Position numbers and translations under genes: made by a program
Sequence record: NC_019399.1
DNA from: Escherichia phage vB_EcoM_ACG-C40
Strand: one strand, 5' to 3'
Length of the DNA stretch: 64,000 bases
Notes under the pieces: generated by a model
What the model was told of the DNA's origin: nothing
Seen by the model: the letters and a program-made list of their open reading frames with translations, nothing else
Database searches by the model: none
Part shown: positions 2 through 32,809 of the stretch, in pieces
How positions within the stretch are numbered: position 1 is the stretch's first letter
Layout: each line of letters starts with the position of its first letter

Positions 2-136
2 GACATGCGATTAGCATCTGAAGTGTTTTCAAAAGAGCTTCAAGATATGGGGGATGAATACGCTCCAGTTATATTTGTCGATTCGGTTCATTCTGCTGAG
101 TATGTTCCAGTATCTCATGGTATGTCAATGGTATAA
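2..136 (+). CDS. 3' end of upstream CDS (partial); by position probably large terminase subunit gp17
   Basis: Open frame from window start to TAA at 134-136 (...VIFVDSVHSAEYVPVSHGMSMV*), directly upstream of gene 18 as in T4 order 17-18. Confidence 0.5.
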   Translation, partial: DMRLASEVFSKELQDMGDEYAPVIFVDSVHSAEYVPVSHGMSMV

Positions 137-9500: not shown

Positions 9501-9506
9501 AACAAA

Positions 9507-9530
9507 GGGACCGAAAGGTCCCTTTTTTAT
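9507..9530. terminator. Bidirectional rho-independent terminator between convergent gene 24 and rnlB
   Basis: GGGACC-GAAA-GGTCCC hairpin flanked by T-runs on both strands. Confidence 0.75.
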
Positions 9531-10535
9531 TTAACTTACCAATTCAATCCAAGCCGGACGAAGTACATCTTGTACCATTTTAACTAATTCCTTCTTAATC
9601 AAAGAAGGATTATCCGCTTGAGTTAGAGTAATACCTTCACGAGAAGTTTCTTCCAAAATATCTTGAACAGTTAGCCCCATCACCTTTCCAAAATCTTTTG
9701 GACCAATTTCACCAATTTTAGAAATAACGTTATTTACTCGGTTCAGTGTAACGTAGCAAGCTAAAATTCCCACCAATTTGTTATCAGCTTCTGATAGTTC
9801 AACTTTAGCTTTAATAGGCTTATCAGACTTTTTCTTTTCACTAAATTTGGAATTCTTGCATTTGATGGCTACACGATTTCCATTATGAAGTCAAGAAGGA
9901 TAACAAGGTTTCAATACATATCCTTCAGCGGTAAATACTTCGCCTTTGGCTTCAGCTTTCCAAACACATTTGTTAGCGTCAACTAATCCAGCATGGTCTA
10001 CTGTAAAATTATAATCTTGGACGACAGAATCTAAATCATTTGGCAATTTAATAAGCTCTTCAAATTTACCGCGACCTAAAAGTGGAGCCATTTTAAATTT
10101 AAATGTATTACAAAATGATTCCATCATATAATCATCGACATAAGTCACATCACCACTTTCTGTAGTGACAATAATGTCAAATACATAAAAATCTTTATCG
10201 CCATAATCGACATTCTTCTGAATGCCAGGTCCAGCGAATTCGCCAAAGACTTGATAAGATACAACCGCTGAGGTTTCCATAATATCTTGTACTGCTTTAA
10301 TAGAATCTTCGTAATTCTTTAGAATAATTTCATACCCAAAGAAATCTTCAGCAGGAAGAATCGGTCCAGTACGTTTAGCGCAAGTTACTTTATCACGCTC
10401 AATAATCAATGAGAAATTTGTGCCGTGAATCTTTTCACGAGCTACCCACTCCCCACCAGTCAATCCCAAGCTATAAAGTTTTTCAATAAATTTAGAGTTG
10501 TAATGATTTTCAAGACTGCTATACTTTTTAAACAT
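9531..10535 (-). pseudogene. rnlB: RNA ligase 2 (rnlB) interrupted by an in-frame TGA
   Basis: ORFs 9891..10535 (214 aa, KIHGTN adenylyltransferase motif) and 9531..9776 are in the same frame; a single TGA at 9891-9893 separates them; 214+1+38+81 = 334 codons, the recalled T4 Rnl2 length. Confidence 0.8.
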
Positions 10536-31953: not shown

Positions 31954-31982
31954 AAATAAAAAAGGACTCCCGAAGGAGTCCT
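31954..31982 (-). terminator. Rho-independent terminator after the 30.9-like ORF
   Basis: On minus strand GGACTCC-TTCG-GGAGTCC followed by TTTTTTATTTT. Confidence 0.7.
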
Positions 31983-31986
31983 CAAC

Positions 31987-32163
31987 TTATGCTTTCTGCT
32001 TACCAAAACGAGAAGCATCATCTCGAAGAACCGCACGTGCTCGGCGCATGATCTTCTCAACAGTTTGATTGATACGAGAGTTCGACCCACGCTTGTAGCC
32101 AGCGCGTTTAGAATCACCAACTTTCTTTTCAACTGCTTTCTTTGCTTTAGCTTGTTTTGCCAT
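31987..32163 (-). CDS. Hypothetical basic small protein (30.9-like)
   Basis: ATG at 32163 (MAKQAKAKKAVEKK...) preceded by AAGAG; the longer track ORF probably starts too far upstream. Confidence 0.5.
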   Translation of the reverse strand: MAKQAKAKKAVEKKVGDSKRAGYKRGSNSRINQTVEKIMRRARAVLRDDASRFGKQKA

Positions 32164-32205
32164 TATAAATTCTCTTTTAAATGAAAATGCAGGACTTATT
32201 GGCAT

Positions 32206-32560
32206 TGCCTGCGAAAGCCCTCAAGGGGGTACTTAGGTTTTGAGTATTTACCGACAGGATAACCATAAACCCGTCATCATACCTTATAGCTCTTATCTGT
32301 TGCACACCGTTAGCTTAAAGGTTCCGGGTTCGATTTCTCGAGGATAAGATATATACTGATGGATATATAGGCCTTGAGGCGTACTCCCGATTGGCCATCA
32401 CCTCGGGGTAGCATGCACTTGCCGCTATAAGAATAACATTCAAGAGGTACACCGTAAAACTGCCGGGGTCTTAAAACTATAATGATTCGCAAATCATTAA
32501 TCAGACAGTTCGACGGCTCCTCGATTTTAGCTCACACTAAGGCAGTGAATCTCCAATAAA
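32206..32560. other. ORF-free 355-bp gap, locally GC-rich, with inverted repeats and a tRNA T-arm-like motif
   Basis: No ORF of 60 codons or more with an ATG start; by manual count about 54 percent GC over 32371-32470; GGTTCGATT at 32327-32335; hairpin TAATGATT-CGCA-AATCATTA at 32480-32499. Confidence 0.4.
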
Positions 32561-32809
32561 TTACTTCAGTGTTACCACAAAGTGACGAACTGCTTTTCGT
32601 GCAGCAGAAGCCAGAGGCTTAGCATATTTAAGTTCATCTTTTTCCTGAAGCTCAGCAGCTAATGCAGTTTGAGCAGGATTCAGATGTTTGAAATAACGCA
32701 GGATTTCAAGAGCTTCGGCTTCAACATCAATAGATGCGCCATAGTTTTCGTGACCATTATTCCATGCGTTTCGTTGCAGTTCAAGAGCGTGTTGTAATTG
32801 TTTAATCAT
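32561..32809 (-). CDS. rIII: rIII lysis-inhibition accessory protein
   Basis: 82-aa ORF MIKQLQHALELQRNAWNNGHENYG..., matches recalled T4 rIII. Confidence 0.8.
   Translation of the reverse strand: MIKQLQHALELQRNAWNNGHENYGASIDVEAEALEILRYFKHLNPAQTALAAELQEKDELKYAKPLASAARKAVRHFVVTLK

Follow-up and report, generated by a model that had tools for sequence, protein, structure and literature searches.

What, if anything, is encoded between genes rIII and 30.9 of Escherichia phage vB_EcoM_ACG-C40 (sequence record NC_019399.1)? In the 64,000-nt stretch of this genome analyzed here (the window), an earlier reading of the sequence only had singled out positions 32206-32560, a 355-nt gap free of convincing open reading frames (ORFs), and had listed as candidates a small structured RNA, a decayed tRNA or intron fragment, and the remnant of an excised element. 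We find that the gap is an ordinary T4 rIII-30.9 spacer plus a clean 153-bp insertion, with T4 and RB14 carrying the empty site. By comparison of its homologues, the inserted cassette encodes an RNA of ∼149 nt, predicted to fold compactly and specified by the minus (gene-sense) strand. The comparative evidence strongly supports a new structured RNA family in T4-like phages that matches no known family.

A 153-bp cassette in the rIII-30.9 spacer

When the window was aligned with T4 and RB14, 153 of 153 cassette columns were gapped in both, and the flanks were near-identical to T4. The empty site of T4 reads GAATGT/GAATGATG, with the slash at the junction. The polarity is the opposite of that proposed for an excised element: T4 and RB14 represent the empty site, and the window holds the intact insertion. 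BLAST searches of 50,697 phage records gave a corresponding pattern in which most Tequatroviruses matched only both ends of the gap, ∼180 matched the entire gap, and the central ∼135-145 nt matched phages of other genera at 91-96% identity. The parts of the locus are as follows.

32283..32435, minus strand: the 153-bp cassette, which holds the entire structured RNA and is absent from T4 and RB14; covariance model (CM) R1, built from 25 sequences, matches 32281-32433 (189.5 bits, E=2.5e-50)
32164..32282, minus strand: T4-type spacer from the cassette to the 30.9 start, common to T4 and RB14 by alignment; it contains a GACGGG..CUGUC hairpin, a GGUAAAUA..CAAAAC box, a GUACCCCC-UUGA-GGG hairpin (32217-32232) and a GCAGG..CCUGC hairpin (32189-32212)
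32480..32499, minus strand: hairpin TAATGATT-CGCA-AATCATTA with a perfect 8-bp stem, in the T4-type spacer just after rIII and identical in T4 and RB14

The last of these had been noticed in the sequence-only reading and is present as described, but T4 has it too and it lies outside the conserved RNA.

Fold of the RNA

The predicted fold is built around a perfect four-way junction, in which P1, PJ, P3 and P4 abut without linker nucleotides. The PJ arm runs via a conserved internal loop into P2, and P4 opens to a second junction with P5, P6 and a near-invariant 32-nt segment. RNA nucleotides are numbered over window positions 32281-32433 on the minus strand, and the elements of the fold are listed from the closing helix inward.

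32424..32431, minus strand: P1 5' strand, CUUAUAGC (RNA nt 3-10), of the closing helix, paired with 32283-32290; six of six inner pairs change on both sides
32283..32290, minus strand: P1 3' strand, GCUAUAAG (RNA nt 144-151)
32413..32423, minus strand: near-invariant GGCAAGNGCAU (RNA nt 11-21), invariant in alignments A3 and A5
RNA nt G11 G12 C13 with G62 C63 C64, minus strand: helix PJ, in which GGC of GGCAAGNGCAU pairs with GCC at 32370-32372
RNA nt A14-U21 (AAGNGCAU, the 5' side) opposite C56-G61 (CUYAWG), minus strand: conserved internal loop
32370..32378, minus strand: CUCAAG plus GCC (RNA nt 56-64), the 3' side of the internal loop and the PJ 3' strand
32379..32412, minus strand: P2 hairpin (RNA nt 22-55), with a 10-bp stem (22-31/44-55) and bulged A49 and C53; 8 of 10 pairs change on both sides and 98% of cells are paired
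32391-32402, minus strand: L2 loop (RNA nt 32-43), with the kissing strand UGAUGG at 32395-32400
32350..32369, minus strand: P3 hairpin (RNA nt 65-84), with a 6-bp stem (65-70/79-84); 100% paired, with four pairs changing on both sides
RNA nt 71-78, minus strand: L3 loop of 8 nt, with the kissing strand CCAUCA at 32357-32362
RNA nt 34-39 with 72-77, minus strand: L2-L3 kissing interaction of 6-7 bp
32343..32349, minus strand: P4 5' strand, UCUUAUC (RNA nt 85-91), paired with 32291-32297; five of seven pairs change on both sides
32291..32297, minus strand: P4 3' strand, GAUAAGA (RNA nt 137-143)
32330..32341, minus strand: P5 hairpin, UCGA-GAAA-UCGA (RNA nt 93-104, pairing 93-96/101-104); four of four pairs change on both sides
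32298..32329, minus strand: near-invariant 3' domain, ACCCGGAACCUUUAAGCUAACGGUGUGCAACA (RNA nt 105-136), with invariant blocks; contains P6 and its 15-nt loop
RNA nt 107-109 with 125-127, minus strand: P6, CCG (32325-32327) with CGG (32307-32309)

Individual replacements illustrate how the helices are maintained. P4 reads UCCGUG/CACGGA in Slopekvirus, and P6 reads CCA/UGG in Yersinia phage fHe-Yen9-01 and CUG/CAG in Slopek- and Pseudotevenvirus. At the 13-62 pair of PJ, C-G is replaced once by U-G and once, in fHe-Yen9-01, by U-A. The loop of P5 varies (GAAA, GUAA, UAAA, AUU, UUUA, U6), as does the length of this hairpin; the P5 loop is therefore peripheral, and a GNRA tetraloop-receptor role was ruled out because its sequence is unconserved. 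Phage EcS1 carries an insertion in the P6 loop (L6). Two small stems were discarded because they are broken in divergent members, namely the 5' hairpin (GGCA/UGCU) first predicted by RNAalifold and a GGC/GCC stem inside L2; both were replaced by PJ and the kissing loop. The GGTTCGATT motif that had been likened to a tRNA T-arm is indeed present on the plus strand at 32327-32335, but it is the complement of the P5 3' strand and the start of the 3' domain rather than a T-arm.

Covariation, strand and coding potential

The inverted repeats reported for the gap proved to be real and far beyond chance, and they correspond to helices P1-P6 of a covarying RNA. In an alignment of 25 sequences prepared with MAFFT, 95.6% of the cells were paired and 25 of the 41 pairs changed on both sides; this level was reached by 0 of 500 shuffles, and slid controls gave 30-43%. 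An alignment of 27 sequences from both of the loci described below yielded 97.6% paired cells, changes on both sides at 30 of 39 pairs, and a covariation score of 0.59 versus 0.20, values to be read with the caveat that this alignment was fitted to the covariance model. Compensatory changes in PJ and P6 were seen in the most divergent members. The kissing loops retained 6-7 bp of complementarity in 15 of 15 representatives, whereas only 6.5% of shuffled loops reached 6 bp, and six pairings were represented: CGAUGG/CCAUCG, UGAUGG/CCAUCA, CUAUGG/CCAUAG, CAAUGA/UCAUUG, UUGUAUU/AAUACAA and UGCAUUU/GAAUGCA. The small structured RNA that had been one of several candidates is thus strongly supported by compensatory changes and a kissing loop across at least 12 genera. 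Lack of conservation in relatives had been named as an outcome that would speak against it; the element is conserved as well as covarying.

Wobbles occur on the gene-sense strand alone (16 G-U cells versus 0 A-C cells), and the RNA therefore appears to be read from the minus strand of the window. No conserved ORF was found: each of the six frames contained stops in at least 9 of 10 representatives, and no frame was open in more than one, which also disposes of the short protein gene named beforehand as the other adverse outcome. Family indels of 1, 2, 7 and 8 nt are not multiples of three, and substitutions are compensatory rather than three-periodic. GenBank records PQ537375.1, PP597396.1, MN395284.1 and others have "hypothetical protein" coding sequences (CDSs) of 34-45 aa drawn over the RNA, and these are very likely mis-annotations.

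Constraint extends beyond the helices, with ∼70 unpaired nucleotides being nearly invariant. In seven of eight genera, identity to the window element was 77-93%, compared with 67-75% for the rIII CDS and 60-73% for the gp31 CDS. The exception to this low divergence was the insertion carrier EcS1, with an element identity of 70%.

Distribution and a second locus

The core matched about 406 phage records by BLAST, at a single place in each. The RNA was found in at least 12 genera and at two unrelated loci, rIII/30.9 and uvsY.-2/uvsW.1 (taxa being those of the record taxonomy or, for named phages such as JS10 and SP18, those to which they are usually assigned). Carriers at the rIII locus comprise a minority of Tequatrovirus, Dhakavirus, Gaprivervirus-type phages, and Jiaoda-, Moon-, Kanagawa-, Karam-, Marfa-, Muldoon-, Roskilde- and Kagamiyamavirus, together with Erwinia phage COW86c and Yersinia phage fHe-Yen9-01; all of them have the RNA in the rIII-30.9 spacer, in sense orientation. 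In IMG/VR, CM R1 detected the element in 20 of 50 rIII loci, and a CM search with filters off gave nothing below E=1 in the remaining 30. Pattern scans of metagenomes and IMG/VR returned T4-like contigs only, plus three chance matches (L027, L035, L043). A blastn search of 5,426 E. coli genomes returned no match, and an exact search for an invariant 20-mer in 185,579 GTDB species genomes was likewise negative.

At the second locus, BLAST and CM searches (73-89 bits) identified divergent copies in Yersinia phage JC221, in Slopekvirus mtp5, phiEap-3 and CPRSA, and in Pseudotevenvirus EC-F2 and GAP161. Here the copy follows uvsY/uvsY.-2 and a small ORF and faces uvsW.1/uvsW. Presence and absence are again related by clean indels, as seen when phiEap-3 is compared with a KP15-like contig and GAP161 with RB43/RB16-like contigs. 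No target-site duplications were found at the empty site of either locus.

In second-locus phages, the invariant GGCAAG is preceded at a distance of 9-11 nt by a late-promoter-type box, which reads TATAAATA in phiEap-3 (L103:1476-1483), CATAAATA in JC221 and mtp5, and AGTAAATA in EC-F2. The location of this box suggests that the second-locus RNA is expressed late; TATAAATA is also retained in a KP15-like relative without the RNA. For the cassette itself, no sigma-70-type promoter or intrinsic terminator was found, and no terminator follows P1. A TTTACG-N17-TATTCT early-type promoter across the 5' junction was considered and was too weak to call.

In most rIII-locus lineages, and also in T4, a conserved non-coding module is found that adjoins the RNA on either side where both occur. 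It combines a hairpin ending GGUUAUCC with a CGUUAAAUA..CAAAAC box and with a second hairpin, GUACCC(C)-loop-GGG(G)CUU, which in the window is at 32217-32232; the module may represent a promoter together with a 5'-leader hairpin. The position of the RNA relative to this module within the rIII-30.9 spacer differs among genera, and in second-locus lineages only the GUACCC hairpin of the module follows the RNA.

The uvsY.-2/uvsW.1 spacers of JC221, phiEap-3 and RB43-like phages also contain a conserved micro-ORF downstream of the RNA site (L099:1589-1699, L103:1627-1776, and L113:1860-1928 on the minus strand). Its C-terminus reads ...LLRRP(I/M)EFTFG(G/E)VI(D/G)(K/N)IPS(S/I)KG(Q/M), and it is unannotated in the JC221 and phiEap-3 records that were inspected.

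Comparison with known RNA families

Rfam 15 (4227 models) gave nothing at gathering thresholds in the 64-kb window and nothing at E<=10 on nine members of the family (the window element and eight divergent homologues). The models without a match include group I/II introns, hammerhead, twister, twister-sister, pistol, hatchet, HDV-like and hairpin ribozymes, riboswitches, RNase P, 6S and tmRNA. ARAGORN found 0 tRNA or tmRNA genes in the whole window, and there was likewise no Rfam tRNA match at E<=10. The Rfam null alone would mislead; conservation and covariation are decisive. Our literature search, itself of incomplete coverage, found no published description of the RNA.

Four specific relationships were considered and rejected. 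Homology to T4 rnaC/rnaD was not indicated, as CM R1 with filters off reached <=6.2 bits (E>0.8) over T4 69000-74000. For RNase P RNA, CM R1 did not match rnpB and the Rfam RNase P models did not match the element. Membership in the PeSL/PmSL (promoter-early and middle-promoter stem-loop) cassettes was set aside given a single copy in the window, one place per record, and no promoter-like site inside the cassette. A riboswitch expression platform was rejected on the basis of 45-190 nt of unrelated spacer, the box module that intervenes in several genera, different downstream genes at each locus, and the lack of a terminator after P1. The fold and conservation pattern resemble those of an aptamer but point to no ligand. 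As a separate observation, the invariant 10-mer GUGCAACAGA (32298-32306) is identical to E. coli rnpB (M1 RNA) 125-134. A few 7-8-mers are also shared with M1 RNA; taken together with the 10-mer, they exceed chance only marginally (p ∼0.03-0.05 versus shuffles), and the shared word CGAUGGCC is coincidental because it lies within the covarying kissing loop.

Possible functions of the RNA

The reading that we favor, with a probability of roughly 0.55, is that the cassette specifies a structured RNA that works as an autonomous and portable module by binding to a conserved partner. The RNA would be read from the strand of the flanking genes and, in the window, presumably transcribed within the rIII-to-30.9 message. 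Its invariant unpaired nucleotides would form a pocket or surface that recognizes the partner, which may be a protein, an RNA or a small molecule of the host or the phage that is shared by Enterobacterales infections. Instead of regulating rIII or 30.9, the RNA would then serve as an accessory module complete in itself, such as a decoy, sponge or cofactor, and the module would have spread and been lost as a unit through recombination between co-infecting T4-like phages. Signs of such autonomy are the self-contained fold closed by P1, the movement as a unit between two loci, and the existence of relatives that have the same neighbor genes and lack the RNA.

Several points weigh against this interpretation. 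The proposed binding function is deduced solely from how the RNA is conserved and from its portability. Phylogenetically, the family as sampled has little depth (Straboviridae, enteric hosts), and "invariant" may overstate the constraint; moreover, the 99-100% identity across Tequatro-, Dhaka- and Gaprivervirus-type records could derive from recent horizontal transfer rather than selection. Second-locus transcripts that start from the late-promoter-like box would lack most of the P1 5' strand. Finally, the RNA is usually followed after 45-190 nt by a small ORF (30.9, or the conserved micro-ORF in several second-locus phages), and therefore a leader-type role could still apply.

As a tentative extension, the family may represent a new class of functional RNA, being either a self-cleaving ribozyme or a decoy or sponge for a conserved Enterobacterales factor or immune signaling molecule. 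In the decoy or sponge version, T4-like phages could be trading an RNA-based accessory or counter-defense gene as a 150-bp module. Both versions are compatible with a unique fold, an unpaired core that hardly varies, and a patchy distribution of the kind seen for accessory genes.

Catalysis as such, whether self-cleaving or of another kind, seems doubtful to us. The internal loop and 3' domain, positioned by the P1-closed fold and its kissing loop, would form the active site of a new catalytic RNA that cuts the polycistronic transcript between genes. Its architecture is typical of small ribozymes, which likewise combine a junction and a closing helix with a tertiary contact between loops, and in which unpaired nucleotides are conserved and peripheral stems vary. 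In phages, the hammerhead, twister, pistol and hatchet ribozymes are found in a portable, patchy and gene-oriented manner, and the cassette RNA is likewise portable, patchy and oriented with its flanking genes, and in the window has neither promoter nor terminator of its own. Yet none of the Rfam 15 ribozyme models matched the nine members at E<=10, the ∼70 conserved nucleotides are far above the need of known small self-cleaving ribozymes, and the sequence alone names no candidate cleavage site.

We regard as doubtful to the same degree a cis-acting leader, riboswitch-like or protein-binding, that would control the translation or stability of the small downstream gene (30.9, or the micro-ORF at the second locus). 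The invariant joining strands of a P1-closed, aptamer-like junction would suit such a role, as would the arrangement at the rIII locus, where a small ORF always follows the RNA on the same strand at a distance of 45-190 nt. The promoter-like box of JC221 and Slopekvirus is followed in turn by the RNA, the GUACCC hairpin and the conserved micro-ORF, but the JC221/phiEap-3-type micro-ORF is not downstream of the RNA in GAP161 and EC-F2, and the downstream genes are unrelated between the two loci. In addition, no expression platform is conserved, the stretch before the ORF differs in sequence as well as in length, the box module intervenes in Tequatro-, Moon- and Karamvirus, COW86c and EcS1, and close relatives without the RNA retain the same downstream genes.

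It is improbable that the RNA is an mRNA stability or processing element whose fold blocks exonucleases or directs an RNase cut, so as to fix the 3' end of the message from rIII or the uvsY operon. The RNA starts 5-15 nt past the upstream stop codon in Moon, Cronus, GAP161 and phiEap-3, as such an element might, but 110-125 nt from the rIII stop in the window and in Jiaodavirus. At the second locus it occupies a convergent intergenic region ahead of a bidirectional terminator. Simple hairpins would suffice for this task, for which neither a kissing loop that covaries nor dozens of unpaired positions that never change would be expected, and T4, cassette-free by alignment, expresses rIII normally.

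That the repeats act at the level of DNA rather than RNA, as in a replication origin, a site of recombination or homing, or a miniature mobile element bounded by terminal inverted repeats, is very improbable. Gain and loss are cassette-like, inverted repeats are present at the ends, and the second locus is near uvsY, the vicinity of a T4 replication origin. However, the terminal repeats covary rather than stay conserved, the internal helices and the loop-loop pseudoknot covary as well, the restriction of G-U wobbles to one strand (16 versus 0) points to a single-stranded sense RNA, and a single copy per genome is combined with empty sites that lack target-site duplications.

A decayed tRNA, a group I intron fragment or a short protein gene, for which the T-arm-like GGTTCGATT on the plus strand and the "hypothetical protein" CDSs in several records might be invoked, can be dismissed as far as sequence analysis allows: ARAGORN and the Rfam tRNA and intron models gave no match, GGTTCGATT is antisense to the RNA, and compensatory substitutions accompany the lack of any frame open in more than one member.

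Although T-even phage genomes are among the best studied, the RNA was apparently overlooked since T4 carries the empty site, and its absence from the model phages T4 and RB14 would explain why it has never been studied. Automatic pipelines leave it blank or call it a "hypothetical protein"; even if its role is modest, the covariance model would correct hundreds of GenBank annotations. The cassette marks a 150-bp unit of horizontal exchange between phage genera, and nature provides near-isogenic pairs in T4 versus carriers, KP15-type versus phiEap-3, and RB43/RB16-type versus GAP161. Should the RNA prove to be a catalyst, or to have a host or immune factor as its binding partner, it would be an RNA-only accessory gene in the phage-host arms race and a new fold for structural biology.

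Neighboring genes and composition

The window is a Tequatrovirus-type (T4-like) segment in which the minus-strand gene order is cd, 31.2, 31.1, 31, rIII, 30.9, 30.8. The genes that flank the gap are as follows.

32561..32809, minus strand: rIII, a lysis-inhibition accessory protein by the annotations of matching records (phrog_1457, E=4.7e-44), the upstream neighbor in the direction of transcription
31987..32163, minus strand: gene 30.9, a basic protein of 58 aa (phrog_1427, E=2.3e-31), the downstream neighbor, with the T4-type start from T4 annotation and alignment

The non-coding gap of 355 nt (32206-32560) lies between rIII and the long form of 30.9 (31987..32205, minus strand), which has 72 aa from the ATG at 32205, as annotated in RB14. 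The T4 start (58 aa), which is conserved in other genera, corresponds to the ATG at 32163-32161 here, and with it the non-coding gap measures 397 nt (32164-32560). Because short forms are also annotated in PEi20 (59 aa) and Moon (56 aa), the left edge of the 355-nt gap was probably placed ∼42 nt too far right.

By a mechanical test for ATG ORFs of >=50 aa in six frames, the gap is the second-longest uncovered stretch in the window. The longest, 9501-9890, is not a true spacer but the rnlB coding sequence broken by an in-frame TGA, and the description of the gap as the longest ORF-free stretch thus holds in practice. Gene rnlB (RNA ligase 2; 9531-10535, minus strand) reads KPCYPS*LHNGNRV around this stop (∼9891-9893), and the frame beyond is open to the normal C-terminus. 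The T4 Rnl2 protein presumably has Trp at this position (KPCYPSWLRNGNRV in T4), and the TGA could reflect an error in sequencing, mark a nonsense allele, or serve as a codon that is read through.

The gap has a GC content of 44.2% and its core 46.9%, compared with 36.3% for the window, which places the gap at the 96th percentile of 355-nt windows. Its GC-richest 100 nt (32371-32470) contain 54%, in agreement with the figure counted earlier for part of the gap. Directly 3' of 30.9, a strong terminator-like hairpin on the minus strand (31962-31983; GAGGACUCC-UUCG-GGAGUCCUU, then a U-tract) probably ends the rIII-30.9 transcription unit.

Comparison with known systems

Among elements of T4-type phages, the PeSL is a simple stem-loop plus an early (or, in PmSL, middle) promoter that occurs in many copies per genome (PMC4122927). 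PeSL cassettes are, like the cassette described here, short non-coding modules tied to indels and to modular shuffling in the hyperplastic regions of T4-like genomes (PMC4122927, PMC2839356); in contrast, the cassette RNA is a single-copy, 150-nt multi-helix structure with a pseudoknot-type contact and no recognizable sigma-70-type promoter inside. The T4 rnaC/rnaD transcripts (species 1 and 2 RNAs, function unknown) are stable T-even RNAs of comparable size (119-139 nt), but they come from the tRNA-cluster locus of T4, are not matched by the covariance model, and belong to a phage without the cassette RNA at rIII-30.9.

Riboswitch aptamers with kissing loops (purine and lysine) share with the cassette RNA a closing P1, conserved joining strands, and two adjacent hairpins locked by loop-loop pairing. 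The cassette RNA differs from them in that it has no expression platform, its downstream gene and the distance to it vary, a promoter-like box module stands between it and the ORF in several genera, and it is dispensable in relatives with the same genes. Small self-cleaving ribozymes (hammerhead, four-way-junction hairpin, twister-sister) have in common with it a junction, a loop-loop contact that clamps the arms, and conserved internal-loop nucleotides, and they too are frequent in phage DNA in the sense orientation. Compared with these ribozymes, the cassette RNA is larger and much more conserved, has no known core such as CUGANGA...GAAA, and matches no ribozyme model. Orphan structured non-coding RNA motifs of the Breaker/Weinberg type, identified in phages and bacteria through comparative genomics and represented in Rfam, are likewise defined by covariation, closed by P1, furnished with invariant junction nucleotides and carried by phages. 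Relative to those motifs, the cassette RNA matches no Rfam 15 model, is confined in the sampled set to Straboviridae of Enterobacterales, and behaves as a 150-bp unit that is present or absent at two loci.

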